Assembly: GCA_022844165.1 (NCBI GenBank)
Contig: JALHMH010000020.1
Location: 1 to 64,000 of the forward strand
Direction: 5' to 3'
Origin: Lysobacterales bacterium
GTDB taxonomy: Bacteria; Pseudomonadota; Gammaproteobacteria; Xanthomonadales; SZUA-5
DNA: 64,000 bases
The number at the start of each line of letters is the position of its first letter. Positions within the stretch are counted from its first letter, which is position 1. The position numbers and the translations under genes are program-made. The notes under the pieces were generated by a model, which had not been told where the DNA came from, made no database searches, and saw only the letters and a program-made list of their open reading frames with translations. Shown in pieces: positions 11,572-57,202 of the stretch.

Positions 11572-11590
11572 TTGAGTTTCAAGCACATAT

Positions 11591-11620: not shown

Positions 11621-11629
11621 CGAGGTCCG

Positions 11630-14596: not shown

Positions 14597-14857
14597 TCAA
14601 TGCCTGCGCGTCGAAGTCTGCGCGATCAGGTCGGCGCACCAATCCTCGAAGGCCTGCATCTCGTCAGCCGTCCATGCGGGATTGGGCGCCAGTGTTGCCA
14701 GTAGCGCGGCGATCGCCTGTTCGGCTTCGATGCGGGTGTTTCGGCAGTCTGCCGGATCGGCCACCATGCGCCTGTCGGCTGCCGCGCAAAGTGCATCGAG
14801 CGCATGGGTGTACTGCGCTCGGAAACGTGACGGCAGATCGAACGATTTCGTGCGCAT
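14597..14857 (-). CDS. Hypothetical protein
   Basis: 86-aa ORF with a GGAAGG RBS-like sequence, at the end of the satellite minus-strand operon. Confidence 0.5.
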   Translation of the reverse strand: MRTKSFDLPSRFRAQYTHALDALCAAADRRMVADPADCRNTRIEAEQAIAALLATLAPNPAWTADEMQAFEDWCADLIAQTSTRRH

Positions 14858-14959
14858 CGGTGCCTTCCCAGTTTTGAAGAATTGCCGCGTCACGGGAGAT
14901 TCGCTGCGGCTGCCGGGGTTTTGCACGCTCGGGCACTGGCCGGCTAATCCCGTCGACAA

Positions 14960-15382: not shown

Positions 15383-15873
15383 AGGTCAGTTGCCCACACT
15401 CCAAGAATTACCTTTGCATCGGCCTCAGCGCGTCGAGGGATGAAGCCGTTTCCTTCCGCCTTGAGGATTTCGCGCTCTTCGCGCACTTCCAGCTCGCGCA
15501 ATTCGCGCCTCAACTTCGCCAGTTGCGCAGATCGCTCGCCAGCGCTTAGCGGCGTGTGTGAGCCCATGCGCGCGGTCAACAACGCTCGCGCTTGTTTCTC
15601 GACGTGGTCGCGGCCGAGCAGCAGGAACAAGGCTTGCGTGATGGCGGTAGGATCGGGCCAGGACGGGCCAATGGCAAAGGGCTGTTCTCCGCCGTCTGAC
15701 GCGAGGACGCCTTCCAGCAAGGCGCGGCCGCCTGCCAGCGCATCCGGCGAATCGAACAAGCCAGCGATGGTTGCGGCACCTTCATCAACGCTGCGCATGG
15801 ACTCGCCGATGTCGGCGATTTCGCTAAGCTTGGCGTCGAGTGATTCGCGGAGTTTTTCGATAGCCGGGGTCAT
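15379..15873 (-). CDS. Hypothetical protein
   Basis: 164-aa helical ORF, ATGA-coupled on both sides. Confidence 0.7.
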   Translation of the reverse strand: MTPAIEKLRESLDAKLSEIADIGESMRSVDEGAATIAGLFDSPDALAGGRALLEGVLASDGGEQPFAIGPSWPDPTAITQALFLLLGRDHVEKQARALLTARMGSHTPLSAGERSAQLAKLRRELRELEVREEREILKAEGNGFIPRRAEADAKVILGVWATDL

Positions 15874-16307
15874 GCGGGCAATACCTCGCCGCTCTGCGTG
15901 CTGCCTTCGCTGAAGGCGATCCCGAGCGTGCGTCGCGTGGTCTTAAGCTCCCTCACAATGGCATCCACCAGCTGATTCGCAGGCGCCGAAACTTGGTTCA
16001 GCGCGGACGCTTCGTCAATCGTCGTTTGCCTGTCGGATCGCATCGCAGCGATGCGGTCTCGAATACCTTGCAAGTGCGCGTCCAGGGAGGCGTGCTCAGC
16101 TTGGACTGCCGAGATGTGCAAGCCGGCGCGCAGGTAGTGAAGCCGGCGCTCGATTTCCGGTAACTGGCGTTCGAGCGCCTGCGCATCCTGGCGCAGCTGG
16201 TCGGCGCGCTGCTGGAGTGCCGAAATCTTGGCGCGCGTGGCGAACGCGGTCAACGCGATGGTGCGCAACTTGGCTTGAATCTTGGGCGTTACATGTTGTG
16301 TGTTCAT
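15870..16307 (-). CDS. Hypothetical coiled-coil protein
   Basis: Heptad-rich ORF (KISALQQRADQLRQDAQALERQL), coupled to the downstream gene. Confidence 0.65.
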   Translation of the reverse strand: MNTQHVTPKIQAKLRTIALTAFATRAKISALQQRADQLRQDAQALERQLPEIERRLHYLRAGLHISAVQAEHASLDAHLQGIRDRIAAMRSDRQTTIDEASALNQVSAPANQLVDAIVRELKTTRRTLGIAFSEGSTQSGEVLPA

Positions 16308-16382
16308 GGCGCAAATGCTGGCGACCTGCGCGCCTGTTTGCATCGTAGGTTTGGCGGCGAATGTCGGCGATTGGCGCACGGT

Positions 16383-16634
16383 CTATGCCGCGCGATCGCG
16401 TCCGGCGTTCAGGTGGTCGACCACGTCGACAAGCCGATAGAACACACGGCCGCCAGAAGGCAGTCGATAGCCAGTCGGGCCGACTCCCATCTCTCGCCAG
16501 CGCTCGATGGTGCGCGGGCTGACGCCCAGGACTTCGGCCAACGTCGCGGCGCTCACCGAGCCGCTAAGCGTAACGCTTCCGCCTCGGGCGCGAATCTCGC
16601 GCTCCAAAGTTTCGGCGGTGTAGGCTGCCTTCAT
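16383..16634 (-). CDS. Helix-turn-helix (AlpA/Xis-like) protein
   Basis: VSAATLAEVLGVSPRTIERWREMGVGP...GGRVFYRL. Confidence 0.8.
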   Translation of the reverse strand: MKAAYTAETLEREIRARGGSVTLSGSVSAATLAEVLGVSPRTIERWREMGVGPTGYRLPSGGRVFYRLVDVVDHLNAGRDRAA

Positions 16635-17116
16635 GGCGTCGGCTCCTTGCCGGTTTCCGCGCGTTTGCAAACACTATCGATCACCGACACCATTTGCTCC
16701 CGCGTAGAGCACATCACATTGCGGATATATGCGACCGAATCGCTGTCGATGCGCCTGTCGCGCTCCAAGCGATCCGCGACCGTATCCAGTTCGCGCACCA
16801 TCGGACCAGCAAGGCGACCGAGCACGTCGGCGACGTCTTCGCGGCGCATCAGGTTGCCGGCCTCGACGCCAAGTTTCAGCCGATCGCGCTCGGCGGCATA
16901 GTAGGCGCGCAGCTCGAAGGGGGACATTTTGTCCGGGTCACGGTTGCCAGCGCGCGCACTGAATGCGCAAATGATGGCCGGCAGGTCATAGACCGGGTAT
17001 CCGCCACGCTGGCCGGCAGGCTCGGCGCCGGATTCGGCCAGCTTGCGCGAGACTGTCTCGCGAGCCATTTTCATTTCTCTGGAAATCTCGCTGATGCTGA
17101 AAATCAGTTCACGCAT
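16631..17116 (-). CDS. DUF1441 family / lambda Nu1-like terminase small subunit homologue
   Basis: N-terminal wHTH (FSISEISREMKMARETVSRKL), DPDKMSPFELRAYYAAERDRLKL, GNLMRRED; lies directly downstream of cos-like sites. Confidence 0.75.
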   Translation of the reverse strand: MRELIFSISEISREMKMARETVSRKLAESGAEPAGQRGGYPVYDLPAIICAFSARAGNRDPDKMSPFELRAYYAAERDRLKLGVEAGNLMRREDVADVLGRLAGPMVRELDTVADRLERDRRIDSDSVAYIRNVMCSTREQMVSVIDSVCKRAETGKEPTP

Positions 17117-17214
17117 ACGCCTCACCCTCGATACAGTTGTGACAACTCGTTTCCCTCGTACCTAAGCCAAAAACGCCCATCTGTTGCTGCGTCCCTGGGC
17201 TACCGAAAAACTGT

Positions 17215-17468
17215 CGAAAACCGCGGCCTTGGCCCCGTGGTACGTGAAACAGGCCGGGAAAGAACCTAAGCCCCCCGGACCGATTGCTGGCAGGTTCGCC
17301 GGGGTCCTTCCGGCTGTGCGCGTCCATGGCGGGTGCGGAGCCGTGTGGCGTGCGTAGCGTGAGAACCGCAAGAAATGTCCGTCCCAGGTAGGAAATCGGC
17401 GCGCGCCTGCCGCTGATCGAGCGAAGCGATCTATCGATCCGCTTGCAATAAGCCCATGAATAGGACCC
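17215..17468. other. Cluster of lambda-like cos (cosQ/cosN) candidates
   Basis: Three cosQ-like heptamers (AGGTTCT minus, GGGTCCT plus, GGGTCCT minus), each followed after 22-25 nt by a CG-G(N9-10)-CG cosN-like segment. Confidence 0.6.
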
Positions 17469-17484
17469 TCCGGCCCACCATGCG

Positions 17485-17811
17485 TCATCGCAACGGCTCC
17501 GCTGCGGCGACGCGCTCGGGTCCAAACTGGTCGCGCACCGTCCGCAGCATCTCGTCGGAATCAGAATTGGCTGTGTCGATTGCTGTGCATCCGGTTCCAT
17601 CGACGAATCTGATGCGCCAGGCTCGACACCGGGACAGCGGTTCGTTCGCGCATCGTCGAAGGTGCGCGATCACTTCGACCTTGTTCGCGATCAGCAGCGC
17701 GCGCAGATCGGGCGGCAGTCTGGTCGCTGGTGTGATCGAGAGTAGGTCGCCCTTCGCCTTAAGCGTGAGCCCGGCAGCAGAGGCGGTGCGGATGATCTCG
17801 GCGGCGGTCAT
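17485..17811 (-). CDS. Small protein with TubC_N-like N-terminal domain
   Basis: MTAAEIIRTASAAGLTLKAKGDLLSITPATRLPPDLRALLIANKVEVIAHL; ATGA-coupled to the helicase. Confidence 0.65.
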   Translation of the reverse strand: MTAAEIIRTASAAGLTLKAKGDLLSITPATRLPPDLRALLIANKVEVIAHLRRCANEPLSRCRAWRIRFVDGTGCTAIDTANSDSDEMLRTVRDQFGPERVAAAEPLR

Positions 17812-19586
17812 AGCAGCACCTCGTCGGTTTCGCACTCTGTCTCGACGTTACATCCGCCGGGGAAACCGTCAGAACCGTCACAACCTACACAACCGCCATT
17901 CCCAGTTCGTGCTGGTTGTGCTGGTTGTGCTGGTTGTGCTGGTTGTGCTGGTTGTGCTGGTTGTGCTGGTTGTGCTGGTTGTGCCGCACTTCCCGGCGGA
18001 TGTAACGATGATTCCTCTTCATCTTCGACAACTTTTTTGCGCTTGTGAAAAGGGCTTGAACCGTCACAACCGTCATAACCGTCACGACCATCATTGGCAG
18101 CCCTGATCTTCTGGATCGTGACCAATCGCCCTCGGCTTCCGCGCTCGCTCAGGTCCACACTGAGCCCTGATTGCCGGAACGCCGGCGCCAGTCGCCTGAG
18201 TGCATTGGACAGCTTCTCCGGCGTAGACGGGAACGTCCTGTCATGGTCTGGCTTGATCGCGGTTAGCAGCTCGCCTACGGTGCCCTGCCATCCCGCCAGA
18301 TTGCGCTCCGACAACTCGATCACTGCAATCGCAACCGGCGACGATTCAATCGCCCCCAATGTTGCCGAGCGGATGCTCGCCCTGTACGCCGTGAGAAAGT
18401 CGGCGGCTGCGAACCCAAGCGCCGGCATCGCCGCTGCCGCCCAAGTGGCAAAGTCAGCCATGCGCGGCTTCTGGCCGATATCGATGCTCTTGGCGTCGCG
18501 CATCGCCAGCCTGAGCGATTCCAGCACGGCACCAAAGATGCGACCTGCTGATCGCTCGTAGGCTCGCCGTAGATCAGCCTCGGTCCTGCGGTTGCTGATT
18601 GGCATCAGCTCGACGAGCAACGAGCGTTCGGCCAGATCGGGACGGCTTGCCAGATCGTCGATTCCGTTTAGGATGATCGGACGCGCAATCTGTAGCAGCA
18701 CCTCGGTCGTGTCGGTGAATAGCTGCCTTGCCGCGATGCCGCCGCCTGTCGCCAGTCGGCAGATGCCATCCGACAACCAGGCAGGACAACCGCTCAGATT
18801 GTCGTAGGCCAGAACGTGACTATTGAGCGCCGCGACGCATAGGTCGCGTTCCTCACGCGGCGGTGATCGCAACGGGACTGCCGACGGATCGGTGATCGAC
18901 TTCACGCGCCGGGTTGCCTCGCTCTTGCCGGTGCCCTGTTCTGACGTGAACAGCAAAACCGGATACGGACTGCGAGGACGGAGCGCACCGGCAACATAGG
19001 CCGCGATCAGCGGCTGTTGCTCAGGCCTGCATGGGATCAAGTCCCAGATCGACGAGAAGTCCGCGCCATCGGGCTCAGGTAGCGCGAGCGACTTCGGTGA
19101 GCGCCGGAACAAGCATTCGGCCTGGTGATCGCGATCTATCGAGCTCGCCGTGATCTTCCACGCTGACCACACTTTGTCGCCGGTATCGATGAACATCGCA
19201 TTGCCGCTGGCGCCGGTGCGCAGGTGGACAGCCCGCGTATCGGACCGGCCAAACTTGGCGCTGGCGTTCAAGGTCGCGATGGCATCGGCGACCGCGTTTC
19301 TGTTGGCGCCTTTTTCCTCCCGCCGGAAGAACTCGGCCGCCAGCCAATCGCGAGTTTGCTGCGACTCAATCGGATAGACCTCCTTGTGTGCGCCCGCGCG
19401 GACCTGGACGTAGCCAACACCATCCTCATCTGCGAATAGATGTTGCTCGGCGCCGATCTCGATCAACTGCTGAGCGATGCCTTTGCGTTTCTCGTGCTCG
19501 CCTCGGTCGTTGGCCTTGCTGACGCGCTCCAGATCGCGTTCAGCGCGCGATTCAAGATCATCGATATACGACTCTGGCCCGCTCAT
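17808..19586 (-). CDS. Replicative helicase/ATPase of the satellite
   Basis: Walker A-like SEQGTGKS, Walker B LAYDN, LATGG...RQLFT, RPIILNG, DLAERS (SF3/VapE-like pattern). Confidence 0.8.
   Translation of the reverse strand: MSGPESYIDDLESRAERDLERVSKANDRGEHEKRKGIAQQLIEIGAEQHLFADEDGVGYVQVRAGAHKEVYPIESQQTRDWLAAEFFRREEKGANRNAVADAIATLNASAKFGRSDTRAVHLRTGASGNAMFIDTGDKVWSAWKITASSIDRDHQAECLFRRSPKSLALPEPDGADFSSIWDLIPCRPEQQPLIAAYVAGALRPRSPYPVLLFTSEQGTGKSEATRRVKSITDPSAVPLRSPPREERDLCVAALNSHVLAYDNLSGCPAWLSDGICRLATGGGIAARQLFTDTTEVLLQIARPIILNGIDDLASRPDLAERSLLVELMPISNRRTEADLRRAYERSAGRIFGAVLESLRLAMRDAKSIDIGQKPRMADFATWAAAAMPALGFAAADFLTAYRASIRSATLGAIESSPVAIAVIELSERNLAGWQGTVGELLTAIKPDHDRTFPSTPEKLSNALRRLAPAFRQSGLSVDLSERGSRGRLVTIQKIRAANDGRDGYDGCDGSSPFHKRKKVVEDEEESSLHPPGSAAQPAQPAQPAQPAQPAQPAQPAQPARTGNGGCVGCDGSDGFPGGCNVETECETDEVLL
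17864..18094. repeat. 9-bp iteron-like array (4 plus + 8 minus + 4 plus)
   Basis: AACCGTCAC-like x4 at 17864-17899, GCTGGTTGT x8 at 17911-17982 (AACCAGCAC on minus), AACCGTCAC-like x4 at 18059-18094. Confidence 0.9.
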
Positions 19587-45312: not shown

Positions 45313-46201
45313 TCAGCTTTCGGTTGCAAGTGTGCCAGGTAAGCTCACAGGAACAGTGCCAACCGACCCGCCAGTGGCCACGCAAGGGCCATTGACCGAT
45401 GAGATTTTTGCCACGCCGCCCTTTGCGCAACTCGCGGCCTATCGCGAGCTACTGGCGTTGAGCGACGCCGATTTTCTGCGCGCGATCAATTCACAGGTCG
45501 ATTCGCCATCCTTTGTTTGCGCAACCACAATCGACGACGGGATGCACTACGAGGCGCGTGTGGCCCAAGGTCTGGTCAGCACCCGTCCGAACAGTTGGCA
45601 TGACCGTTTTGGGGCGCTTGCCTGGCTGGAGTTTCCGCACAGCAAGCGCGCATTGAACGCCCTGCAAATGGCGGGGCTGGTGCGAGTCGGCCCGAAAGAA
45701 AGAACCCGCCATCAACAGGCGCTGACGCATGTTGATGAAGCAGGATTGATCGTAGCCTGCGCCGATGCCGGCTGGTTAGATGCCATGCTCGAGCACCGCT
45801 GGACCGAATTGCTGACCTCACGACGCAAACAACTTAACAAGGACGTCGAAGTGTGGGTCCTCGGCCATGCATTGTTTGAGCTCAAGCTGACGCGGACGGA
45901 TGAACTGTTGGCAGGCAAGGTTCTGCCGGTGATGGTGGAGCCCGGTTTTTATGCCGACTCCCCGGAGTCTCGCCGCGAGCAGTTGGACCGGCGCATCGCG
46001 GCTGCTCTGCTCGCCGGAGAACTCGCCGCTGACCCAAAGGACCTGCCGACGCTGCCTCTGGCGGCGCTCGCCGGGTGGCACCCAAGAAACGCCGACCCGG
46101 CATTCATCGCGAGTGCGCCGTGCTTTCGCCCCAAACCTGCCGGGCGGATCTACGCTCCGCCCGTTGAGCTGTGCTTGCCAAATCAGCCGAACATCAGCTG
46201 A
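45278..46201 (+). CDS. DUF3025-like protein (start uncertain)
   Basis: HYEARV...[33 protein letters not shown]. Confidence 0.8.
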
Positions 46202-48060
46202 TTCAAGCGCCGCACGAAACCGCTCGGATCCTCGAGCTGGCCACCTTCGCTGAGTACGGCTTGTTCGTACACCAGCGTTGCCAAATCAGCGAATCGATCT
46301 GCATCGGCTTCGCCCTGGAGACGCGCCGTTAACGGATGCGTCGGGTTCAATTCCAGATTCGGCGCGCCACTGCCGGCGCCCTGCCCGGCTTGCTTCAGCA
46401 ATCGCTGCGTATGGAGCGACAGTTCGTGTTTGTCAACGACCAGCACTGCAGCAGAATCGCGCAATCGACTCGAGCCCCTGACCGACTTCACCCGTTCTCC
46501 AAGCGCCCCCTTGATACGGTCAGCAAGTCCATCCGGCAATTCTGCAACGGCAGGTCTGGTCGCGCCGGGAAGGTCCTCGATCGTCGACAGGTCAACATCG
46601 CCCTTGGCAACCGAGACGAAAGGCTTGCCGTCGAACTCATGCACGTACGACAGCGCCCACTCGTCGATGCGATCGGACGCCAACAGCACTTCAACCCCCT
46701 TGCCAGCGAACTGTTCCAGGTGTGGCGAGTGGCGAGCCGCCAGGTGGCTCTCGGCGGTGATGTAATAAATCGCCGTCTGATTGGGTCGGACACGCGCCAA
46801 ATAGTCGCTCAGCGACACCGTGGGCGTTGCGCCTTCAGTACTCGTCGACGCGAAACGCAGCAGTTTCGCGATGCGCTCCCGATTGGCAAAGTCCTCGGTG
46901 AGGCCTTCTTTGAGCACCTGTCCGTATTCGCCATAAAAGGCGGCATATTTCTCGGTGTCGTCTTGTGCGAGTTTCTCCAGCATATCCAGCGTTCGCTTGA
47001 TGACTGCCGATCGAATCTGCTGCGTCAGCTTGTGGTCTTGCAAAAGCTCACGCGAAACGTTCAACGGCAAATCGTCGGAATCGACGACGCCACGAATAAA
47101 GCGCAAGTACGAAGGCAACAACTGCTCCGCAGCATCCATGATGAAGACGCGCTTCACATACAACTTCAGCCCGTGGCGCTCGTCACGCTGCGCGCCGAAC
47201 AAATCGAACGGCGCCTTGGCGGGCACATAGAGCAGAGTGACATAACTCTGACTGCCCTCAACTTTGTTATGGGTATACGCCAGCGCTTCGCCGTCGCCAT
47301 GGGTCAGGTGTTTGTAAAAGCTCTGATAGTCCTCGTCCTTGATTTCGGACTTCGGTCGCACCCACAGTGCCGACGCTTGATTGACGGTCTCGAACTCGGC
47401 GGTTTTTTCTTCCTCACCGCTGTGCTGACCTTTCATTCGAATCGGAAAGGCAATATGTTCGGAGAATTTGTTGATCAGCGAGCGCAAACGCCAACCGGCC
47501 GTGAACTCTGACTCTTCCTCTTTCAGGTACAACACAATCTCAGTACCGCGCGGCGCGTGTTCTGTGCGATCGACGCGATATTCGCCCTTGCCATCCGACT
47601 CCCATACCACGCCCTCCGATGCCGCCCCACCTGCACGGCGAGTGGTCAACATCACTTTATCGGCGACAATAAACGCCGAATAAAAGCCAACGCCGAACTG
47701 ACCAATCAACTGCGCATCTTTGCGCGCGTCGCCGGACAGGCTCTCCAGGAACTTACGTGTGCCCGAGCGCGCAATGGTGCCGATGTTCTCTACGACTTCA
47801 TCGAACGCCATGCCGACGCCGTTATCGCGAATCGTCAACGTCCTGGCCTTTTCGTCGCTCTCGATCTCGATCTTGAGTTCCGGATCTCCCGCCAGGAGCT
47901 CGGGCGCGGAGATCGCTTCGAACCGCAGTTTATCCAGAGCATCCGAGGCGTTGGAGATCAGTTCCCGAAGAAAGATCTCCTTATTCGAATACAACGAGTG
48001 GATGACCAGATTGAGGACTTGCTGGACTTCGGCCTGAAAAGCGCGCGTTTCTTGGGTCAT
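46183..48060 (-). CDS. htpG: Molecular chaperone HtpG (Hsp90)
   Basis: LYSNKEIFLRELISNASDA, IGQFGVGFYS, LPLNVSRE. Confidence 0.98.
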   Translation of the reverse strand: MTQETRAFQAEVQQVLNLVIHSLYSNKEIFLRELISNASDALDKLRFEAISAPELLAGDPELKIEIESDEKARTLTIRDNGVGMAFDEVVENIGTIARSGTRKFLESLSGDARKDAQLIGQFGVGFYSAFIVADKVMLTTRRAGGAASEGVVWESDGKGEYRVDRTEHAPRGTEIVLYLKEEESEFTAGWRLRSLINKFSEHIAFPIRMKGQHSGEEEKTAEFETVNQASALWVRPKSEIKDEDYQSFYKHLTHGDGEALAYTHNKVEGSQSYVTLLYVPAKAPFDLFGAQRDERHGLKLYVKRVFIMDAAEQLLPSYLRFIRGVVDSDDLPLNVSRELLQDHKLTQQIRSAVIKRTLDMLEKLAQDDTEKYAAFYGEYGQVLKEGLTEDFANRERIAKLLRFASTSTEGATPTVSLSDYLARVRPNQTAIYYITAESHLAARHSPHLEQFAGKGVEVLLASDRIDEWALSYVHEFDGKPFVSVAKGDVDLSTIEDLPGATRPAVAELPDGLADRIKGALGERVKSVRGSSRLRDSAAVLVVDKHELSLHTQRLLKQAGQGAGSGAPNLELNPTHPLTARLQGEADADRFADLATLVYEQAVLSEGGQLEDPSGFVRRLNQLMFG

Positions 48061-48089
48061 GGGCGTAAAAAGGCATTGGGAAGCCACGG

Positions 48090-48117
48090 ATTTGAGGGCA
48101 GAATGGCGAAGTTCAAG
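48090..48117 (-). promoter_or_regulatory. Putative sigma32 promoter of htpG
   Basis: Minus strand CTTGAA-14 nt-CCTCAAAT. Confidence 0.65.
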
Positions 48118-48132
48118 CGGCGGATCGCTTTC

Positions 48133-49242
48133 ATGTTGAATGCCCTTCGAGTCGCCTCGCCTCTGCATCTTGCGGCGCTGATCACCTGGCTGGCAGTGCT
48201 TGCGCAATCGCTGCGCTTTAACGGGCTCCGCAGTGGCGATCCACTGCAGCTGTTCGGTTTGCTGTCGTTGTGTGCGGTCGCGGGACTCTACTTCGGTACC
48301 ATGCACACCCAATCGGCACGCGGACGTGGGCTGATGGTGATCGGACAAGGGCTACTGGTGCTGGTTGGCACCTGGTGCTTTCGCAACGGCGGTCCAGCAA
48401 TTTTGCTGATCGTGGTTGCAAGCCAGATGGTCGCGATGTTTCAGCGTCGCAATGCGCTGGCGCTCATGATTGCTTTGAATGTCGGAATGGCACTCATCTA
48501 CTCTGTCGCCATGCCGTGGGCCAACGTGCTGCTGTTTCTGACGCCACTGATCGGCTTTCAACTGTTCGCCGCGTTGACCATGCACTACGCCGTCAGCGCT
48601 GAAGCCGCACGAGCGGAAGTCCAGCGGACGCACGCTCATTTGTTGGCAACCCAACAATTACTCGCTGAAAGTACACGCGGCGATGAGCGATTGAAGCTCT
48701 CCCGCGAACTTCACGATGTTGCCGGTCACAAATTGACGGCACTCAAACTCAATCTGCGCCTGCTGCGCCGCCAACCAGCGCTCGCGGAAAATGCCGAATT
48801 GGGCATCGCGGCGCAGCTGGCCGATGAGTTGCTCGACGACATTCGTGCCGTTGTCAGCGAGTTGCGGCGCCACGATGGCATCGACCTTCCCGCCGCAATA
48901 GAACTCCTCACACGGCAGATACCAGGACCTGGTTTTGAGGTTGACATCGACCCGGAATTGCGGATCGCTGATGTCGCCCGTGCCGAGGCGTTGTTGCGGT
49001 GCGTGCAGGAGGGAATCACCAATGCGCTGAAGCACGGCCAGCCGACCGCCATTCGTATTGGACTCAAGCATCGCGATGGACGGATTGCGCTTACTGTGGA
49101 GGACAATGGTCAATCCCGCGGCGAAGTCCGTTTCGGCAACGGGTTGAACGGCATGCGCGAACGCCTCGCCGACATTGGCGGTGTATTGGAAGTGATCGGC
49201 ACTGCGTCAGGCGTGCGTCTGCTGGCCGAGGTGCCAGCATGA
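48133..49242 (+). CDS. Membrane sensor histidine kinase (HisKA_3, DesK-like)
   Basis: Multiple TM; ERLKLSRELHDVAGH, QEGITNALKH, GNGLNGMRER. Confidence 0.93.
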   Translation: MLNALRVASPLHLAALITWLAVLAQSLRFNGLRSGDPLQLFGLLSLCAVAGLYFGTMHTQSARGRGLMVIGQGLLVLVGTWCFRNGGPAILLIVVASQMVAMFQRRNALALMIALNVGMALIYSVAMPWANVLLFLTPLIGFQLFAALTMHYAVSAEAARAEVQRTHAHLLATQQLLAESTRGDERLKLSRELHDVAGHKLTALKLNLRLLRRQPALAENAELGIAAQLADELLDDIRAVVSELRRHDGIDLPAAIELLTRQIPGPGFEVDIDPELRIADVARAEALLRCVQEGITNALKHGQPTAIRIGLKHRDGRIALTVEDNGQSRGEVRFGNGLNGMRERLADIGGVLEVIGTASGVRLLAEVPA

Positions 49243-49871
49243 TCCACATCGCCTTGCTGGACGACCAGGCCCTGGTGCTCAAAGGCCTGTCAGCGCTGTT
49301 GCGCAGTGTGCCCGGCATCGATGTCGCGCTCGAATCAACGAACGCCGAGCAGCTGCTGCACGCGTTGGAGCGTCGCGCCGTCGATGTCATTGTCAGCGAT
49401 ATTCGTATGCCTGGCATAAACGGATTCGAACTGATCACGAGCCTGCGCGAACGTGGCGATACGACACCAGTCATCTTGCTGACAACCTTCGATGACAAAG
49501 AGCTGATGTTGGCAGCTGTCGATGCCGGAGCGCAGGGGTTCTTGCTCAAGGACGCGGCACCGGAGGATTTGGCCGAAGCCATCGCCAAGGTAGCTGCAGG
49601 GGATACGCTGCTACAACCCGTGAGCCTGGGCGCAGTGCGCGCACAACGCCCTTCCGTTCGCAACGAGAGCCTGCGGAACGTCTCCCTCTCAGATCGCGAA
49701 GTCAGCATCCTGCGGCTGGTCGCCGGCGGTTATTCGAACAAAGAGATCGGCCGCAGTTTGCACCTCTCGGAAGGCACGGTGAAAAACTACATCACCGAGA
49801 TCCTGGCGAAGCTGGACTGCCGCGACCGCACGCACGCGGTCTTAAAGGCAATCACGCACCGCTTATTGTGA
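49239..49871 (+). CDS. NarL/LuxR-family response regulator
   Basis: LLDDQ, SDIRMPG, LTTFDD, LSDRE...SNKEI...EGTVKNY; ATGA-coupled to the kinase. Confidence 0.95.
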   Translation: MIHIALLDDQALVLKGLSALLRSVPGIDVALESTNAEQLLHALERRAVDVIVSDIRMPGINGFELITSLRERGDTTPVILLTTFDDKELMLAAVDAGAQGFLLKDAAPEDLAEAIAKVAAGDTLLQPVSLGAVRAQRPSVRNESLRNVSLSDREVSILRLVAGGYSNKEIGRSLHLSEGTVKNYITEILAKLDCRDRTHAVLKAITHRLL

Positions 49872-50012
49872 ATCCGAGAACTAAGTCACGGACGCATTGT
49901 GGCGTAGCGCATTCACTCGCGAAGCCCAAACTTGCTCAACGAAACGCCGCACTTTCTCTGGTCCTTTCATGAACTCGTTGCCTCCAGACGACAGGCAGGC
50001 ATACTGGGCAAA

Positions 50013-50173
50013 CGCAGCAGTCGTCCCGAGTGTGGGGTAGTTCATCACTATCCACTGCGGGGATGCCCCGCGGCCTGGCTGTATGTTTCGGCAGTTGCAT
50101 GGCAGTGAAGCTCGTTTGCCTTTCGGCAAACCCACTTTCACCGCAATCGAAGACGTCGGGACGGCTGTCTGCG
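50013..50173 (+). ncRNA. Putative retron ncRNA (msr-msd)
   Basis: Terminal inverted repeat 50013-50029/50156-50173, unpaired G at 50030, two short hairpins (50032-50055, 50057-50071) and a long hairpin (~50095-50146), ending 20 nt before the RT start. Confidence 0.75.
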
Positions 50174-50192
50174 CTTTCGCTTCTGGAACGCC

Positions 50193-51242
50193 ATGATGCG
50201 CTTTGACCAACTGCCCGGATTCGAGTCGACGATTCACCTGGCGCAATGGCTCGGCCTGGCAATGGGCGAGATCGACTGGTTTGCAGATCGCTACAACAAT
50301 CTGGCACGAAACCACGTGGAACAGAGCCACCACTACCGATGGCATTGGCTACCCAAACGCCGCGGCGGCGTGCGTATGATTGAGGCACCCAAAGCCCGTC
50401 TGCGGCGTGTTCAACGGCGCATCCTGGATCGGATTTTGCACCTCGTGCCATTGTCGGAAGCAGCCTGTGGATTCGTCCGCGGGCGATCATGCCTGGACCA
50501 TGCCCGGCGCCATGTTGGAGCAATCTGGCTGGTGACGACGGATCTTAGCGACTGGTTCGGCCGCATCGACGGTGCGCGCGTGTTCGCGCAATTTCGTTGG
50601 CTGGGCTATCCGCCAGCCGTGGCCGTTGCACTCACTGGCCTTTGTACGACGCGCGTGCCAGCTGCGCTCATTGCGCAAGCAGCGCCCGGCGATCGACTGT
50701 GGCTGCGCTCACCCCACTTGCCGCAAGGTGCGCCCACCTCGCCCAGTCTGGCCAACCTGGTGACCTCTCGGCTGGATCGGCGCCTGAGCGCCTACGCTGC
50801 GGCGGAAAACCTGCGCTATTCGCGATACGCTGATGATCTTGCGCTTTCGCCGCAGCATGGCGCAAATGCGCCACCTCCAGACCGCGTCATTGATGCTGTC
50901 ACGCGCATTGCTCGCAGCGAACGCTTCGTCATAAACACAGCCAAAACCCACATACGCAGGCAATGTGACTCGATGCGCATCTGCGGCAGCATCGTTAACG
51001 CCAGACTTAACTCAACCCGGGTCGAATACGATCGCCTGCGCGCCGCAGTACATCGCCACGTTCATGGGAACCCAGAGCCGGATCTCAACAAGTTGCTGGG
51101 TCAGCTGACATGGCTTGCCCAGCGAAACCCCAGACGCGCCGAGCGGCTGCGAGAGAAGTTGAAGCGTGAGGCGGGTCCGGGTTCCGACGAGTTGGAGCCA
51201 CAGATAGACCGGCTCACATGCAGCAGCGCAAACAACGGCTGA
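50193..51242 (+). CDS. Retron-type reverse transcriptase
   Basis: PKRRGGVRMIEAP, DHARRH (NAxxH-like region X), LPQGAPTSPSLAN, YSRYADD, ICGSIVN (VTG-like region Y). Confidence 0.9.
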   Translation: MMRFDQLPGFESTIHLAQWLGLAMGEIDWFADRYNNLARNHVEQSHHYRWHWLPKRRGGVRMIEAPKARLRRVQRRILDRILHLVPLSEAACGFVRGRSCLDHARRHVGAIWLVTTDLSDWFGRIDGARVFAQFRWLGYPPAVAVALTGLCTTRVPAALIAQAAPGDRLWLRSPHLPQGAPTSPSLANLVTSRLDRRLSAYAAAENLRYSRYADDLALSPQHGANAPPPDRVIDAVTRIARSERFVINTAKTHIRRQCDSMRICGSIVNARLNSTRVEYDRLRAAVHRHVHGNPEPDLNKLLGQLTWLAQRNPRRAERLREKLKREAGPGSDELEPQIDRLTCSSANNG

Positions 51243-51269
51243 GTATCAGAACAGGTTTTGCCTGCTTGT

Positions 51270-51346
51270 TGGTAGCGGGGGCAGGATTTGAACCTGCGAC
51301 CTTCGGGTTATGAGCCCGACGAGCTGCCTGACTGCTCCACCCCGCA
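51270..51346 (-). tRNA. Initiator tRNA-Met (CAT)
   Basis: TGCGGGGTGGAGCAG...TCGGGCTCATAACCCGA...GGTTCAAATCC...CCCCGCTACCA; three GC pairs in the anticodon stem, 1:72 mismatch. Confidence 0.96.
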
Positions 51347-51360
51347 CCGGTAAGCCCGCA

Positions 51361-51389
51361 ACTTTAGCGAACACTCGCGGAGAACGCAA
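51361..51389 (-). promoter_or_regulatory. Putative sigma70 promoter of tRNA-Met
   Basis: Minus strand TTGCGT-17 nt-TAAAGT followed by a GC-rich discriminator. Confidence 0.55.
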
Positions 51390-51435
51390 GTCAAAATTTT
51401 GGCGAATCGCCAGCAGTTCCACTCATCTCCAGAGC

Positions 51436-51483
51436 ACTGTCGAACGCAGCCAACAATGCGCGGCGGCCTGCGGCGAAGCCTCG
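51436..51483 (+). repeat. Dispersed intergenic repeat, copy 3
   Basis: actgtcgaacgcagccaacaatgcgcggcggcctgcggcgaagcctcg. Confidence 0.7.
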
Positions 51484-51575
51484 TCGGCCGGTTGAAAAGT
51501 CGGCACCTGTGGCAATCATCGTGGCGACATTTGGTCTTGTTATGCTCCAGGCTACTTCGTTAGTGAGTCTCGCCC

Positions 51576-52466
51576 ATGAGCGCTCGGTTACGCACCGTTG
51601 TTTTTCCCGTTGCAGGACTCGGAACCCGGTTTCTACCGGCGACCAAAGTGGTACCGAAGGAACTACTGCCGATCATGGATCGGCCACTGATCCAATGGGC
51701 GGCGGACGAGGCGATCGCCGCAGGCGCGGACACGCTGGTGTTTGTCGTGAATCGCAACAAACGAGCGATCAACGACCACTTTGACATGGCGTTCGAACTT
51801 GAATCGAGGTTGGCGAGCAGCGGCAAGACCGAGCATTTGAAAATGGTGCGGGAAACTCTGCCGGCGCATGTGCGTCCGGTGTTTGTTTTGCAGCCAGAAG
51901 CGCGTGGACTCGGACACGCCGTTTTGTGCGCCAGGCCAGCCGTCGCCAATGGTCCCTTCGGCGTAATTTTGCCCGACGACTTTATCTTGAATCGCAATGG
52001 CCCCGGCGCGCTGGCGCAGATGGCTGCTGTTCAAGCCGAGCACGGCGGCAGCGTGATCGCCGTCGAGCCCGTCGAATGGAAGGACACATCGCGCTACGGC
52101 ATCGTCTCGGGCTCACAAGTCAATCGTCAGCTGATGAGGATTGATACGATCGTCGAAAAACCCAGGCCTGATGTAGCGCCAAGTAACCTGGGCGTTGTCG
52201 GACGATATGTGCTCGATCACCACATTTTCGATTTGTTGGAGCGCACCAATCCCGGCGCAGGCGGAGAAATCCAGCTCACAGACGCCATCGCTGCACTGCT
52301 GAAAGAACAGCCGGCGTACGCGTATCGCTTCGATGGCGTGCGCTACGACTGTGGAAACAAACTAGGTTACGTGCAGGCGACCCTTCGCTGTGCGCTAGAC
52401 GACGAGGAAATCGGCGACGAATTGCGCCGTACACTGGAGAACTGGCTGGCGCCGAGTGTGGCTTGA
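51576..52466 (+). CDS. galU: UTP--glucose-1-phosphate uridylyltransferase
   Basis: PVAGLGTRFLPATK, GLGHA, VEKP, GGEIQLTDAI, YDCG. Confidence 0.96.
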   Translation: MSARLRTVVFPVAGLGTRFLPATKVVPKELLPIMDRPLIQWAADEAIAAGADTLVFVVNRNKRAINDHFDMAFELESRLASSGKTEHLKMVRETLPAHVRPVFVLQPEARGLGHAVLCARPAVANGPFGVILPDDFILNRNGPGALAQMAAVQAEHGGSVIAVEPVEWKDTSRYGIVSGSQVNRQLMRIDTIVEKPRPDVAPSNLGVVGRYVLDHHIFDLLERTNPGAGGEIQLTDAIAALLKEQPAYAYRFDGVRYDCGNKLGYVQATLRCALDDEEIGDELRRTLENWLAPSVA

Positions 52467-52563: not shown

Positions 52564-53925
52564 TCAGGTGACAGGGGATCGTTCCAGCGAATCGACGATA
52601 TCGGAGCGGTATTGCCAGAGCTTGCCTTCGCTCTTATGCAACATTTGCGCGCGGATCTTCGCGGACCCCAGCACCCGGTTCAGTCGCGCGATTGTTTCGT
52701 CGAGATCGAATCCCGGCCCAGGCTGAACAGTGAAATCGAGATCGCCGTCGACTCGTTGGTGCAGCGAGAACTGGGCGATCGGCAAGTCGGCGAGTGCATG
52801 GGTGATGTCAATGTTGTTGAGGAAACTGCCATTGGCTCTGCGAATTCGAACAGGTTGCCGACCAAGCAGTCGGCGAAGCACAAATTCTCCGCCAACGCGC
52901 TCCAAAGTCGCCGTATCTCCGGTGCGGTATCTCACCAAGGGCAAGTAGTCGTTGAAGCCACCGGTCAGCACAACATCGCCTGCCTCGCCAATTCCTGGCG
53001 GCCGATTGTTCGCATCCAAAATCTCGACCACCAGCTCTGGCTGCAGCAACATGTGACCATCCACTGAGTTCTCGTACGCGGCGATCGGTCCGGCCTCATT
53101 GAGTGAATACACATCGGCGACAACGCACTTGAAGCGCGCTTCCAGCGCGTGGCGCAAACCTGGCAACAGTTGCATGGACGTGCTCAAAAGTATCTTGGGC
53201 CGGTGTTCGAACTCGATCTCCAGCAGCACAGCGAGGGACAGCGGATCGCCTGCAATTACCTCCGGCGCCAGCGCGTCGATGTAAGCGCCGCGGTCGCTCA
53301 AGTGACGCCAATCAACCGGATGCAGATTGATCTTGGCTAATCCACAATCATCGCGATAAGGGGTGACGGAGGTGTAGGTAAAACACTTCTGCTGCCAGCC
53401 AATCAGCAGTACGCCCACTTGCCCACGACCCGCGGTTAACTCGACGCCCAGTCGTCGATACGCCCGTTGGTGGTAACTCAAGTAGCGAGCGGCCACCACT
53501 GGATGCGAGGGCAGAAGGAGCGGGTGTCCGGTACTGCCGGTGGTACGGAAGTTGATGACGCGGTCGAGCGACAGGTCATCTGGAACGAATGCCGCGATAT
53601 CTGCCGCAAAATTGGCGCGCGACGTGGTGGGCCAATCGCCAAGTTCATCGCTGCCGGGTGCGTGCAAGCGCCAATACGGCACCTGTTCCCGCACACGTTT
53701 CAGAAACGCAGGCAGCCAAGCTGCGAAGTGCGGTCGTGGTTCGATATCGGCGCATCGCACGCGCTCGCTATGTTGGCGCACGGCATCCACTTCCATCGGC
53801 AGCAGGCGATGCCCACTGTGATTGCGAAACAACGGCGCCGCGGGATGTTCGCGCATTCGCTTCAGCAATTCCGCGCCGTGCGCCGTGAGTCCTGGATGCC
53901 GGTCGTCGTGTGTTGGGTTCTGCAC
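52564..53925 (-). CDS. Phenylacetate-CoA ligase/CapK-like adenylate-forming protein
   Basis: TTGSTGHP P-loop, YSLNEAGPIA, LVRYRTGD, GRQ; GTG start just after the upstream stop. Confidence 0.8.
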   Translation of the reverse strand: MQNPTHDDRHPGLTAHGAELLKRMREHPAAPLFRNHSGHRLLPMEVDAVRQHSERVRCADIEPRPHFAAWLPAFLKRVREQVPYWRLHAPGSDELGDWPTTSRANFAADIAAFVPDDLSLDRVINFRTTGSTGHPLLLPSHPVVAARYLSYHQRAYRRLGVELTAGRGQVGVLLIGWQQKCFTYTSVTPYRDDCGLAKINLHPVDWRHLSDRGAYIDALAPEVIAGDPLSLAVLLEIEFEHRPKILLSTSMQLLPGLRHALEARFKCVVADVYSLNEAGPIAAYENSVDGHMLLQPELVVEILDANNRPPGIGEAGDVVLTGGFNDYLPLVRYRTGDTATLERVGGEFVLRRLLGRQPVRIRRANGSFLNNIDITHALADLPIAQFSLHQRVDGDLDFTVQPGPGFDLDETIARLNRVLGSAKIRAQMLHKSEGKLWQYRSDIVDSLERSPVT

Positions 53926-53929
53926 TACC

Positions 53930-54505
53930 CTACTCCCGCGACCACTTGTCAGCCGATTCTTCCGCTGCCTTGCGCGCCAGAGCCTCGCGGATTGCACGAG
54001 CGCGCTGTTCCGCCGCGCGACTTGCGTCGACAAGACGCGCGCGCTCCATCGTGCTGACAGCCAGCCATCGATCGCGTGCCTGCACCAGGCTCTCGCCAGC
54101 CGGACGCTGACCCAGGGCCATGAGCGTCAACCGCGCCAACTCCTCGCGACGCTCGTCGTCGGCGATGACAGCTTCGGCGCTCAAATGAACGGCGAGTTCT
54201 CGAGCGCGGATCAGCAGCAGCGCCAGGAGCGCGTTCGGGTCATTCGGCCACTGCAATTGCGGCTCGACCAACAACCAACAGATCAACAATGCCAGGCGTG
54301 GATGTTCACGAGGCGAGATCGGACTAGACAATGCAGCCAGCGCGGTGATCGGCACGTCGATTCCGCGGGAGGACAATACGTCTCTTGCAATTGCATCGAC
54401 ATGGACCAGCCCAGCAGCACCAATGCGCGGCATCGCCAGAAAATCCGCTGGCGCTTCCGCGATGCGGCGGGTCAACAACGGTAGCGGCGCTCCCTCAATG
54501 TCCAT
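53930..54505 (-). CDS. Hypothetical helical protein
   Basis: Overlaps the radical SAM stop; DDERREELARL, RPAGES, C-terminal charged helix. Confidence 0.75.
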   Translation of the reverse strand: MDIEGAPLPLLTRRIAEAPADFLAMPRIGAAGLVHVDAIARDVLSSRGIDVPITALAALSSPISPREHPRLALLICWLLVEPQLQWPNDPNALLALLLIRARELAVHLSAEAVIADDERREELARLTLMALGQRPAGESLVQARDRWLAVSTMERARLVDASRAAEQRARAIREALARKAAEESADKWSRE

Positions 54506-55439
54506 CCGAACCAGGCGCACAGGAAAATGCAAACTTACCCGCAACTTGCGTACTTGGGCAATCCTCACAAACGGCGCTGCGCCGATGACGCTGCATGTTG
54601 CGCCAAGTCATCGCCAATGTGCCGCGCTCAATCTGGGCGACCGGCACACCGTAATCGTCCAGGGTAAATGCGCAGGGCGCAACCCGCCCGAGTTCGTCGA
54701 TGAACCAAAGTACCGAGCCGGGCGCGCAGTCTGCGACCGGGTGCGGAATGCCGCTGGCAGCATCGCGCAACCGCGCAACATAGGCGTCTGTGCCAACAAG
54801 TCGCCCACCGGCGCACTTGATCTCTTCGCGGAGGGCCGGCAAGGTTGCGGCGAACTCGATCAGGTCAGAAGGACGCAGTCGTTCTTCGGCTGAAAAATCC
54901 GGCCGATCTCGCCATCCGAGTGCGTTGAAGGTCACTTCGTCGACGCCCGCCGAAACCAAAACCCGACAAAGTTCAGAGAAGGCGCCGATAGCGCTGCGCA
55001 TCAAGACCACGTTGATCCGCAATAGCGGCCTGGCCCTTTCCGCTGCCAACGATGTGATGCCGTCGAGCAACTTTTTCGTGCCGCCCGGCCAACCGCGCAG
55101 CTGGTCGTGCAGACCATCGATCGCGTCCAGGCTGATCGTCAGTTCGTCGAGAGCCAACAGGCATGTGCGCATCGCGGCCAGCCGCGTGCCGTTGGTGGTC
55201 AGACTGACGCGCAGTCCTTTTGATTTCGCATAGGCAGAAGCGGGCGCCAACGGCGGCCACAGCGTCGGCTCTCCGCCAATCCAGCTCAAATGCGTTGCAC
55301 CACCCTCAGCCAGCCGATCGATCGTCGCAACCGCGGTCGCGTACGAGACATGCGCCCTGGATTTTGGCAATCGTCGGTCGTATGCGCAGAAGCCACATGC
55401 CAGATTGCAGCGCGTATCGATGCGCCAGAGGGCGATCAT
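54495..55439 (-). CDS. Radical SAM protein with Cys-rich C-terminal (SPASM/Twitch-like) domain
   Basis: CNLACGFC, IGGEP, TTNG; C...GRVAPC...CEDC. Confidence 0.9.
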   Translation of the reverse strand: MIALWRIDTRCNLACGFCAYDRRLPKSRAHVSYATAVATIDRLAEGGATHLSWIGGEPTLWPPLAPASAYAKSKGLRVSLTTNGTRLAAMRTCLLALDELTISLDAIDGLHDQLRGWPGGTKKLLDGITSLAAERARPLLRINVVLMRSAIGAFSELCRVLVSAGVDEVTFNALGWRDRPDFSAEERLRPSDLIEFAATLPALREEIKCAGGRLVGTDAYVARLRDAASGIPHPVADCAPGSVLWFIDELGRVAPCAFTLDDYGVPVAQIERGTLAMTWRNMQRHRRSAVCEDCPSTQVAGKFAFSCAPGSDGH

Positions 55440-57202
55440 ATGTCCGATATCACATCGTGACCTTGATAGTGCCGATTCGAGAACACGCGAGCAAAAGCAA
55501 GCAAGTCCTCAAGGCTTGTTAGGGCCGCAATCTGCCAGCCTTGCTCATCGCGTGCGCGCTTGATCCAATTCAACGCCGCCCAGTCCAGACTCTCCCAGCC
55601 GTCGGGCAGATTCAGCGCCAGGGTTCCGCCCCCGCCGGCATCGAGCAGCGCCTGGCGGCAAACATCGAGGCCGCTGTGGCCCTTCTCGTCGGGGCTGTCG
55701 AACATCGTTGAAGCGCCATCGTCCGACACCACCAGGATGTGGGTTGGCCGCAATAACTTCTTCCGCCCCGAATGCAAATCGCGCAGCAGCGGTAATGGGA
55801 ACTGCGTGCCGCCGCCGAAATAGCCGACCAGCACCCGCAGACAATCGCGAGCGTCGCGCACAAATCCATTCGTACTGGCGACGCTTTTCTTATCGCTCCA
55901 AAGATGCACCGCGACCCGGGCACCAGCACGTAGCGCCGACAAACAGATCACCGCACCGGCCAACGCCGGCCAGGAGATGACAACTCGGGGGTCCGGCATC
56001 GAACCGGAGCTGTCGACATACAGATCCAGGTCCAATGGTAATGCGGAATTGTGCTGTCCCTGTACCGTGCCAAACACTCTTTTGACCAGCGTCATTCCCG
56101 CAATCGGCGTTGGACTCTTCAGCAGCGATTCGCGCCAGTCGATCGCTGCAATCGGATCGCCGATCTCCCACAGTTCTGTACCCTCCATCAGCGGTTCGAT
56201 CGACTCGGGCAGACGCATCGTAGGAAACGGCACGAGATACGGACGGGCAAGCTCCTCGTAATAGCGGATCGCCGCCTCTTCGGGCGACAACCGCAGACCG
56301 GCCAGACGCAGAATCTCACCAAATTCGTAAGGCGTGCGCGTCTGACCGCGACCGGATGTGGGAGTGGGCTTTGCTGTCTCACCAATGTCATCGCGATCGC
56401 GAGAAATACCCGAGAGCGTCTCATCGAAGGCCGGATGCACGATGTCAGCGGCATCGATTTCTGTCAGCCCCTGTGGATCGCCACCGAGACCTGCATCGCG
56501 CGTATCGTGCCAATGCGCCAGGCTCGCAGCGCTCTTGGATTCGAGCAGGTACGGCAGCGCCAGTACACCGTAGCGCGACACACCATCCAGCCAGTGTTGA
56601 CTGTAGTGTCGCACCAGTCGCGCGGCGAGGCGAGCGTCTCCTTCCAACGTTTCGTGGTCCATCTTTGCAACCAATTCGCCGGAAGTCATCGCCCACAGTA
56701 ACTCATATGTCCGCTGATAAAACTGCCACAACGAACTGATCTCGACGGGCGCCACGCTTTGCGTCAGACGGCGCATCAGATCAGCCATGCGCAGGCCCGC
56801 GCTGCGCTGCAATCGATCGTTGATCAGCAAGTCAGTGTAAAGATTGCAGATCATCGGTGCCGACGCCTCAACGGTTGGCAGCGCCCGTCGCATGCGCGCC
56901 AGTGAACGCGTATGTTCGGTAACCGACGCTGGCGCGTACACATGGTGACCAATCTCGTGCGCGAGTATTTCCAATGCAAAATCCGTGATGCGCAGTTGCT
57001 CGACCGTTTCCAGATCGATCACCACGGTTTGATCGACCAACCGGATCATTGCAAAACTGCCCTGCAATCCTTCCTTGGCAGCATCAATGCGAAATTCGCA
57101 CAGAAGCGGGAATCGCAGGCGCGTGTATCGCGACCAAGCGCTCAGTGCGTTGGGCCAGGCAGCTTTCCAGAGTTCGATTGCGCTCACGTTTGTCGGATTC
57201 AA
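55436..57202 (-). CDS. HExxH metallopeptidase-like + VWA domain protein
   Basis: AHEIGHH; MIDAS DSSGS, GGGT, VVSDD. Confidence 0.85.
   Translation of the reverse strand: MNPTNVSAIELWKAAWPNALSAWSRYTRLRFPLLCEFRIDAAKEGLQGSFAMIRLVDQTVVIDLETVEQLRITDFALEILAHEIGHHVYAPASVTEHTRSLARMRRALPTVEASAPMICNLYTDLLINDRLQRSAGLRMADLMRRLTQSVAPVEISSLWQFYQRTYELLWAMTSGELVAKMDHETLEGDARLAARLVRHYSQHWLDGVSRYGVLALPYLLESKSAASLAHWHDTRDAGLGGDPQGLTEIDAADIVHPAFDETLSGISRDRDDIGETAKPTPTSGRGQTRTPYEFGEILRLAGLRLSPEEAAIRYYEELARPYLVPFPTMRLPESIEPLMEGTELWEIGDPIAAIDWRESLLKSPTPIAGMTLVKRVFGTVQGQHNSALPLDLDLYVDSSGSMPDPRVVISWPALAGAVICLSALRAGARVAVHLWSDKKSVASTNGFVRDARDCLRVLVGYFGGGTQFPLPLLRDLHSGRKKLLRPTHILVVSDDGASTMFDSPDEKGHSGLDVCRQALLDAGGGGTLALNLPDGWESLDWAALNWIKRARDEQGWQIAALTSLEDLLAFARVFSNRHYQGHDVISDI

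Follow-up and report, generated by a model that had tools for sequence, protein, structure and literature searches.

Is a retron that consists of nothing but its RNA and its reverse transcriptase (RT) a complete unit in its own right, or is it what remains of a larger system whose effector gene has been lost? This question is raised by a locus in a Lysobacterales bacterium (assembly GCA_022844165.1). In the 64,000 nucleotides (nt) of contig JALHMH010000020.1 analysed here (positions 1 to 64,000, forward strand; hereafter the window), a first-pass annotation had placed a complete-looking retron without an effector gene at 50013-51242, made up of an msr-msd RNA and an RT of 349 amino acids (aa). 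Both parts are present at these positions, the RNA with a fold that covaries among relatives and the RT intact, and the region is, with good probability, a two-part retron, intact and autonomous, from the 'clade 11 / outgroup' lineage of stand-alone retrons. For comparison with the window's own genome (G000) we drew on a genome of the same genus (G001), one of the same family (G024) and one of the same order (G082), and on a wider set of related loci. The latter comes from a scan of species-representative genomes with the window RT, in which 595 stretches matched and 588 encode relatives; the best 80 of these 588 form the set of related loci to which counts out of 80 refer.

The RNA is closed by a terminal stem of 17 bp, with one bulge and one G-U pair, between a 5' arm, a1 (50013..50029, plus strand, as are all elements of the RNA), and a 3' arm, a2 (50156-50173; 50155..50173 with the G that precedes it). 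Directly after a1 stands an unpaired G (50030), which faces G50155 at the inner end of the arm; each is a G in 17 of the 21 aligned relatives, and the two make up the classical pair of opposing G residues. By analogy with established retrons, G50030 is the candidate branching residue, whose 2'-OH would serve as the priming site. Within the stem, the minimum free energy (MFE) fold contains msr hairpin 1 (50035..50053), a GC-rich msr hairpin 2 (CTGCGGGG-ATG-CCCCGCGG, 50055..50073), a variable third hairpin in the spacer between msr and msd (50077..50096) and an msd stem-loop (50102..50144, apex 50114-50131), which would be the template of the predicted multicopy single-stranded DNA (msDNA). The terminal stem, the unpaired G, the two msr-like hairpins and the msd-like hairpin are thus all found as first described. 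The MFE of the 181-nt RNA stretch is -83.1 kcal/mol, against -64.6 +/- 4.1 kcal/mol for 200 dinucleotide shuffles (z = -4.58), and 0 of the 200 shuffles fold as well. Two antisense open reading frames (ORFs) that overlap the RNA and the RT gene (49881-50345 and 49936-50523, minus strand) are taken to be artefacts of GC-rich sequence.

Comparison with relatives shows that this fold has been maintained while its sequence changed. Between the window and G001 the stems are kept and the hairpin interiors have changed, with compensatory changes in 7 of the 47 predicted pairs, among them a U-A to C-G replacement in a1/a2; the msd interior differs among the window, G001 and G082, and the hairpin forms in each. 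A covariance model built from the window and G001 RNAs only (R1) recovered, at E<0.01, a full-length RNA upstream of the RT at 17 other loci besides G024 and G082, giving 21 loci in all from several phyla. In their alignment 93.8% of cells pair and 41 of the 47 pairs change on both sides, a level reached by 0 of 500 shuffles and set against 41-45% in slid controls. A second model built from these 21 sequences (R2) gave, at E<=0.01, 72 matches across 96 sources, which cover 62 of the 80 related genome loci, and every match is the only one at its locus, lies on the RT strand and ends shortly before the RT. Here 91.9% of cells are paired and double changes occur in 43 of the 47 pairs (a level found in 0 of 500 shuffles; slid controls 38-49%), these pair counts being somewhat inflated by the fitting of the alignments to the model; model-based alignments were used since MAFFT had misplaced the 5' arm of the G082 RNA in an alignment of three RNAs.

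The constraint is distributed unevenly over the RNA. Among the 72 sequences, all 16 helix pairs of the terminal stem change on both sides and 96.7% of its cells are paired, all seven pairs of msr hairpin 1 covary (88.4% of cells paired), and the base of the msd stem (6+2 pairs) is 93-95.3% paired with every pair covarying. The GC hairpin is the most conserved element: 99.5% of its cells are paired, its sequence is nearly invariant and 3 of its 8 pairs are unchanged throughout, and by comparison with known retrons it is likely to be the hairpin recognised by the RT. The third hairpin (69.4% of cells paired) and a 3-bp extension inside G50030 (about 69%) are poorly supported. Model R2 has 0 matches in three type XIII retron loci. 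The RT and the RNA have been inherited as a unit.

The RT gene follows at 50193..51242 (plus strand) and encodes 349 aa in which RVT_1 (1.2e-21) is the sole Pfam domain, so that no effector domain is fused to it. As the first-pass annotation had read it, the protein carries YADD, DHARRH in region X (A104, H107) and ICG in region Y (G265); YADD, A104, H107 and G265 are invariant in the window RT and eight homologues aligned with it. The H of region X and the G of region Y are described as the most conserved residues of these motifs in the passages on them in Mestre et al. 2020 (PMC7736814). The best 25 of 67 PADLOC matches to the window RT are all retron RT profiles, led by RT_other (3e-111, 371 bits), RT_outgroup (2.9e-106, 354 bits) and RT_XIII (1.9e-79, 265.9 bits). 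The closest solved structure is that of the Ec86 RT of Retron-Eco1 (7v9u, 7v9x, 8qbk; E = 1.3e-30), a relative distant in sequence, and residues 48-319 of the window RT align with residues 48-299 of the 320 of Ec86. Since this alignment covers nearly the full span, the 349-aa protein is a complete RT of canonical retron length, with the full canonical core. Ec86 itself belongs to a type II-A retron, which has an adjacent effector. The window RT is therefore a full-length retron RT with its motifs intact.

These results also bear on whether the locus is a retron at all, or an RT of another kind, such as that of a group II intron, a diversity-generating retroelement or an abortive-infection or defence-associated system (Abi/DRT), that happens to lie beside chance hairpins. 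An Rfam scan of 49000-52000 at E<=10 returned the neighbouring tRNA and two chance matches, with no retron RNA family, and the NCBIfam retron, group II and Drt models all scored under their cut-offs on the window RT, which could be read in favour of such an origin. Yet the group II maturase model reaches 46.9 bits against a cut-off of 300 and Drt2/Drt3a reach 21-31 bits, whereas the leading PADLOC profiles and the solved-structure matches are retron RTs, and the RNA has the retron layout and covaries. We regard the probability of a non-retron RT as negligible.

Which retron, then, is it? Retron RTs have been divided into 11 clades, and in the relevant passages of Mestre et al. 2020 (PMC7736814) stand-alone (msr-msd)-RT cassettes are placed in clade 11 and in a branch of clade 2 (Ec107), while Mx162, Mx65, Ne144 and Sa163 fall in clade 10, which corresponds to type XIII with SWIM plus HEAT/ARM proteins. 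A subdivision into clade11-A (n = 71, 41% Pseudomonadota) and clade11-B, whose RNA models bear the names OutgroupA and OutgroupB, is given in Toro 2026 (PMC13712802), which, in the sections that treat them, reports no accessory module for either and rates them 'heterogeneous/low priority'. An effector-less retron lineage is thus already catalogued, and stand-alone cassettes are not new. The window retron fits the description of a clade 11 stand-alone cassette in several respects: its RT scores best on the 'outgroup' and 'other' profiles; a contiguous upstream msr-msd RNA is shared by the 62 relatives named above; there is neither a recurrent accessory gene nor a fused domain; and the relatives occur in Pseudomonadota, Actinomycetota, Acidobacteriota and Planctomycetota, in agreement with Toro 2026 (PMC13712802). 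It differs from other members in that its RT is about 100 aa shorter at the N-terminus than those of 59 of 62 relatives, and in that it stands directly behind a two-component system and against a tRNA gene, in a genome that also harbours a type XIII retron.

Type XIII is the nearest typed relative of the window RT, and an N-terminus resembling those of Mx162-type RTs had been proposed. This resemblance did not survive comparison, because the N-terminal extension of about 100 aa found in type XIII and clade 11 RTs is absent and the RT scores 266 bits on RT_XIII, 100 bits lower than on RT_other, whereas the type XIII RT of the same genome reaches 500.3 bits on that profile. Moreover, no SWIM or HEAT/ARM gene lies within the window flanks, and the RNA model misses the type XIII loci. 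Retron-Eco5 (Ec107) and the clade 2 stand-alone branch resemble the window retron in being two-part systems among ordinary chromosomal genes with no cis effector, but the RT belongs to a different clade: the RT_Ec107-like profile scores 159 bits (rank 15) against 371 bits for RT_other.

The missing N-terminal extension appears to have been lost within the lineage. In a protein search with the window RT, 8000 candidates were scored and 2492 matched at E<=0.001; among the best 120, the window's own protein is accompanied by five of 326-335 aa with 53-67% identity, and nearly all others are 390-490 aa long with 40-47% identity, their extra ~100 residues being N-terminal. Five of the long RTs gave no Pfam domain in this extension at E<=1, apart from two matches at chance level. 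The window RT alignment begins at position 144 of 481 in RT_other and at 84 of 407 in RT_outgroup, so the window RT is without the N-terminal part of those families, and because the frame upstream of its ATG is open for 28 codons only, an N-terminal extension is impossible at this locus. The close form of the RT occurs in G001 (67% identity) and G082 (54%), and G024 has a 435-aa form with 47% identity. In a tree of 96 RTs from a quick maximum-likelihood search, with three type XIII RTs as the root and support taken from the approximate likelihood ratio test of the Shimodaira-Hasegawa kind (SH-aLRT), the six short RTs group together (SH-aLRT 98), with the 435-aa RT of G024 as their sister (SH-aLRT 99), within a 90-row clade that is roughly sorted by phylum and separate from the type XIII RTs. 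As the short RTs are nested in the clade of long RTs, the short form is derived. When RT length was measured from the end of the RNA, 59 of 62 related loci had 374-523 aa and three were short (334-341 aa), all of them in Amycolatopsis; with short RTs in both the window subclade and Amycolatopsis, the extension has been lost at least twice. The locus therefore belongs to a small subclade, known from this order and from metagenomes, that has lost an extension of about 100 aa typical of its lineage.

In whole genomes, matches to the RT were found in 8 of 59 relatives at E<=1e-20 and, within the order, in 8 of 399 genomes (E<=1e-60); in a class sample at E<=1e-75 G000 itself was the sole match among 400 scored genomes. 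A metagenome scan with the RT gave only two distant partial loci, and the covariation analysis was for that reason based on loci from genomes. The best 80 related loci come from the four phyla named above, Myxococcota and other phyla.

Is the absence of an effector a feature of the lineage, or of this copy alone? All ORFs within 4.5 kb of the RT were clustered across the 80 related loci, and no neighbour family occurs in more than 7 of them; the SWIM and HEAT proteins that G000 encodes elsewhere match none of the 80. The largest is found in 7 loci, all from Nocardiaceae or Pseudonocardiaceae. In those seven (L044, L061, L068, L078, L082, L089 and L091) a protein of 876-1117 aa is encoded in the orientation of the retron, ending 0.2-3 kb upstream of it; the member in L068 is a DnaE2-like DNA polymerase III alpha (PHP, pol3 alpha, HHH and OB domains), and the RTs of L068, L078 and L082 are of the short form. 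Synteny among relatives is the simplest explanation for this neighbour, although the retron could be genuinely associated with an error-prone polymerase cassette. Downstream of the RT each of the four genomes has something different: tRNA-Met and GalU in G000, a protein that we designate P0122 and LptD in G001, a convergent AMP-binding enzyme in G082 and peptidase M3 in G024. A decayed copy would be expected if close homologues all had an adjacent effector, and they do not; since the close homologues share no adjacent effector, the window retron is not a decayed copy. The earlier statement that the locus has neither a cis effector nor a fused domain therefore stands, and being without a cis effector characterises the lineage as a whole; it does not reflect a loss here.

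The protein downstream of the RT in G001 deserves separate consideration, as the window could conceivably hold an orphaned tripartite retron whose ancestral effector survives as P0122 in G001 and was lost here by a rearrangement at tRNA-Met. P0122 (L010 = G001:C1, 6226-7257, minus strand) is a protein of 343 aa with an N-terminal hydrophobic helix, membrane-anchored, and is without a match among Pfam and PADLOC families. The RT stop codon and the ATG of P0122 overlap (ATGA), an arrangement common in retron effectors; P0122 has no match in G000; and it is exactly 3' of the RT that G000 and G001 cease to be syntenic. Homologues of P0122 (26-38% identity) are, however, present in six other genomes of the family, and those in G022, G020 and G008 (35-38%) lie on contigs without any RT match, G020 having no RT match whatever. 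None of the other RT loci in the set of 123 compared has a match to P0122, G082 and G024 carry other genes in its place, no neighbour family recurs across the 80 related loci, and the published lineage is stand-alone in the account that Mestre et al. 2020 (PMC7736814) give of it. We consider such a decayed tripartite origin very unlikely. A long ORF 3' of the G082 RT, tried as a counterpart of P0122, showed no similarity to it and is probably spurious, being antisense to the AMP-binding gene.

G082 gives a further view of the cassette. Its bare RNA and RT cassette (L100, contig C195) is flanked by a 227-nt direct repeat of 85% identity (6584-6810 and 8357-8583), one copy of which is the 3' end of an intact AMP-binding gene, the other a detached 3' fragment that reads as the C-terminus of such an enzyme. 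It looks as if the two-part cassette was inserted together with a replacement gene end, and the unit that arrived in G082 appears to have carried no effector. In the window, a search for an integration scar in the form of a repeat of the tRNA 3' end upstream of the cassette yielded only short matches of 14-20 nt with 73-93% identity.

An effector might also be supplied from elsewhere in the genome, and G000 has a candidate source. Its contig C6 carries a complete type XIII retron in one operon-like row (L012, G000:C6:64000-83999; 9729-17820 with the Macro and PARP-like genes beside it), comprising WGR/HEAT-ARM_XIII (826 aa, 13118-15598, 2e-69), SWIM_XIII (567 aa, 11418-13121, 5.3e-154) and RT_XIII (465 aa, 9729-11126, 1.5e-150), all on the minus strand, with a gap of about 290 nt between SWIM and RT. 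The window cassette could thus act in trans with the SWIM and WGR/HEAT-ARM effectors and feed a second msDNA into the same effector; of the retron types, XIII stands closest to the window RT, being the third-best PADLOC profile, and the two RTs of the genome are 41% identical. However, among the four genomes with this RT subclade or its sister (G000, G001, G024 and G082) the SWIM protein is found in G000 alone, and at E<=1e-20 no second RT turns up in G001. The type XIII loci give no match to the RNA model, so their RNA is a different one, and the type XIII RT is described as co-evolving with its own accessory protein in the corresponding part of Mestre et al. 2020 (PMC7736814). Sharing of the C6 effectors is therefore highly improbable. 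The C6 retron is directly bordered by a gene for a Macro-domain protein (15609-16319) and a bacterial PARP-like gene (16390-17820) whose domains are WGR, PARP_reg and PARP catalytic, and ppk and ppx stand on its other side; the proximity of a PARP-Macro pair to a retron that itself has a WGR-like part in its accessory protein may not be accidental.

The immediate surroundings of the window cassette agree with the first-pass annotation, which had placed it between a two-component pair and a convergent tRNA-Met. Upstream and co-oriented are a HisKA_3 histidine kinase (~48157-49242, plus strand) and a LuxR/NarL-type response regulator (49239-49871, plus strand), and 27 nt after the RT stop lies tRNA-Met(CAT) (51270..51346, minus strand; ARAGORN and Rfam), which bounds the cassette without being part of the retron. 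Farther out are HtpG, DUF3025 and MiaB on one side and GalU on the other. These are housekeeping genes and the surroundings are not a defence island. The ORF calls for HtpG (46183-48348, minus strand, 721 aa) and for the kinase (47557-49242, plus strand, 561 aa) share about 800 nt; judged by G001, the kinase starts near 48157, and some 100 residues of the HtpG ORF precede the Hsp90 match. Both calls are therefore over-extended at their 5' ends, and the genes are divergent neighbours. Two other ORFs of the window, 52564-54033 (minus strand, 489 aa) and 55436-57202 (minus strand, 588 aa), match no Pfam family at E<=0.001.

The position of the retron directly behind the regulator had suggested a link with the two-component system. 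Under such a coupling to the DesK/NarL-type pair, by read-through or by control through the regulator, msDNA would be made when the kinase senses its signal. The retron is co-oriented with the regulator and directly downstream of it in the two genomes of the genus, no terminator-like site lies between the regulator stop and the RNA, and the retron's own promoter is weak, its -35 element being unrecognisable in G001. The block is common to the two genomes, with 83% identity for the regulator, 72% for the kinase and 67% for the RT. Beyond the genus, however, the arrangement dissolves: kinase orthologues, with their regulators, are present in 22 of 25 genomes of the family, and in six kinase-regulator loci from other genera the regulator follows the kinase and no RT lies within about 6 kb. 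In G024 the kinase-regulator pair is on contig C18 and the retron on C2, and in G082 no such pair stands beside the retron. Adjacency that is limited to two congeneric genomes represents a single, recent evolutionary event and gives no support for a functional tie, and promoter-like sites precede a1 throughout the family. The proposed tie was accordingly not upheld, and we judge the coupling quite unlikely.

The sequence before a1 suggests instead that the retron has a promoter of its own, if a weak one, with read-through from upstream possible. In the window the promoter-like site consists of TTGCCT (49978-49983), a 16-nt spacer and CATACT (50000-50005), and lies 7 nt before a1 (49978..50005, plus strand). 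The same two hexamers stand upstream of the G082 RNA (TTGCCT-17-CATACT), G001 has CATACT only, and in most of the 21 related loci compared the pattern TTGAC-~17-TAnnnT stands at a distance of about 7 nt from a1. From the regulator stop to the RNA the window spacer (49872-50012) measures 141 nt, of which about 80 nt have no counterpart in G001, whose spacer is much shorter; the window spacer holds the -35-like hexamer. Between the RT stop and the tRNA there is a weak terminator-like hairpin (51252..51264, plus strand; 5 pairs, 3 of them G-C), a consensus match only.

Taking these observations together with established retron biology, from which all steps of the mechanism are inferred, we propose the following model. 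The weak promoter (TTGCCT-16-CATACT) would start transcription at or beside 50013, and the transcript would carry the msr-msd RNA and, 20 nt later, the RT gene. Pairing of a1 with a2 would close the RNA, the RT would bind the conserved GC hairpin (50055-50073), prime on the 2'-OH of G50030 and, starting at about G50155, copy the msd back across the stem-loop 50102-50144, which would yield a branched msDNA roughly 55-60 nt long. As a best guess, the partner of the RT-msDNA complex is encoded elsewhere in the genome, or the complex acts alone, either of which seems likelier than coupling to the adjacent two-component system.

Several points weigh against the reading of the locus as an intact, autonomous two-part retron of this lineage. 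The equation of RT_outgroup and RT_other with clade 11 is inferred from the names of the RNA models in Toro 2026 (PMC13712802). The window RT departs from the lineage in lacking the N-terminal extension that 59 of the 62 related loci measured possess, and the tree that places it is a quick search with SH-aLRT as its sole support. The promoter-like site fits 8 of 12 consensus positions and was not called by the promoter scan, its -35 part cannot be recognised in G001, and the scan found no terminator between the regulator gene and the RNA, so that transcription may come from upstream. In G001 the overlap of the RT stop with the start of P0122 is of a kind often seen with retron effectors. Finally, the fitting of the RNA alignments to the covariance model has raised the pair counts to some extent, although the slid controls lie far below and the pair types are numerous despite this bias, and both the RNA fold and its covariation exceed chance. 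The reading of an autonomous two-part retron remains the probable one with these points taken into account.

What might such a retron do? In the literature searched, no paper assigns a function to clade 11 retrons, and the matching passages of the census paper PMC10849725, which are figure legends, hold nothing specific to clade 11. Whether 'orphan' retrons use effectors in trans or have another function is a question posed in Mestre et al. 2020 (PMC7736814), in the part that discusses them. It is conceivable, though improbable and offered as speculation, that clade 11 retrons are self-sufficient, with the RT-msDNA complex as the active agent and not as the guard of a toxin; that in this genus such a unit was captured behind a DesK/NarL-type operon, from which no terminator separates it and beside which its own promoter is weak, so that msDNA would come under signal control; and that the repeated loss of the extension and the bare cassette of G082 mark the minimal unit that is both functional and transferable.

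More broadly, the locus offers a clean test case for the role of effector-less retrons, the question raised in the discussion of orphan systems by Mestre et al. 2020 (PMC7736814). It is a minimal unit of 1.27 kb, with a promoter, an RNA and an RT of canonical length without extension, set among housekeeping genes, and the type XIII retron resident in the same genome could serve as an internal comparison. If msDNA is made from it, the N-terminal extension of clade 10 and clade 11 RTs would be dispensable, and the locus would provide a compact RT with which to ask what a bare retron does.

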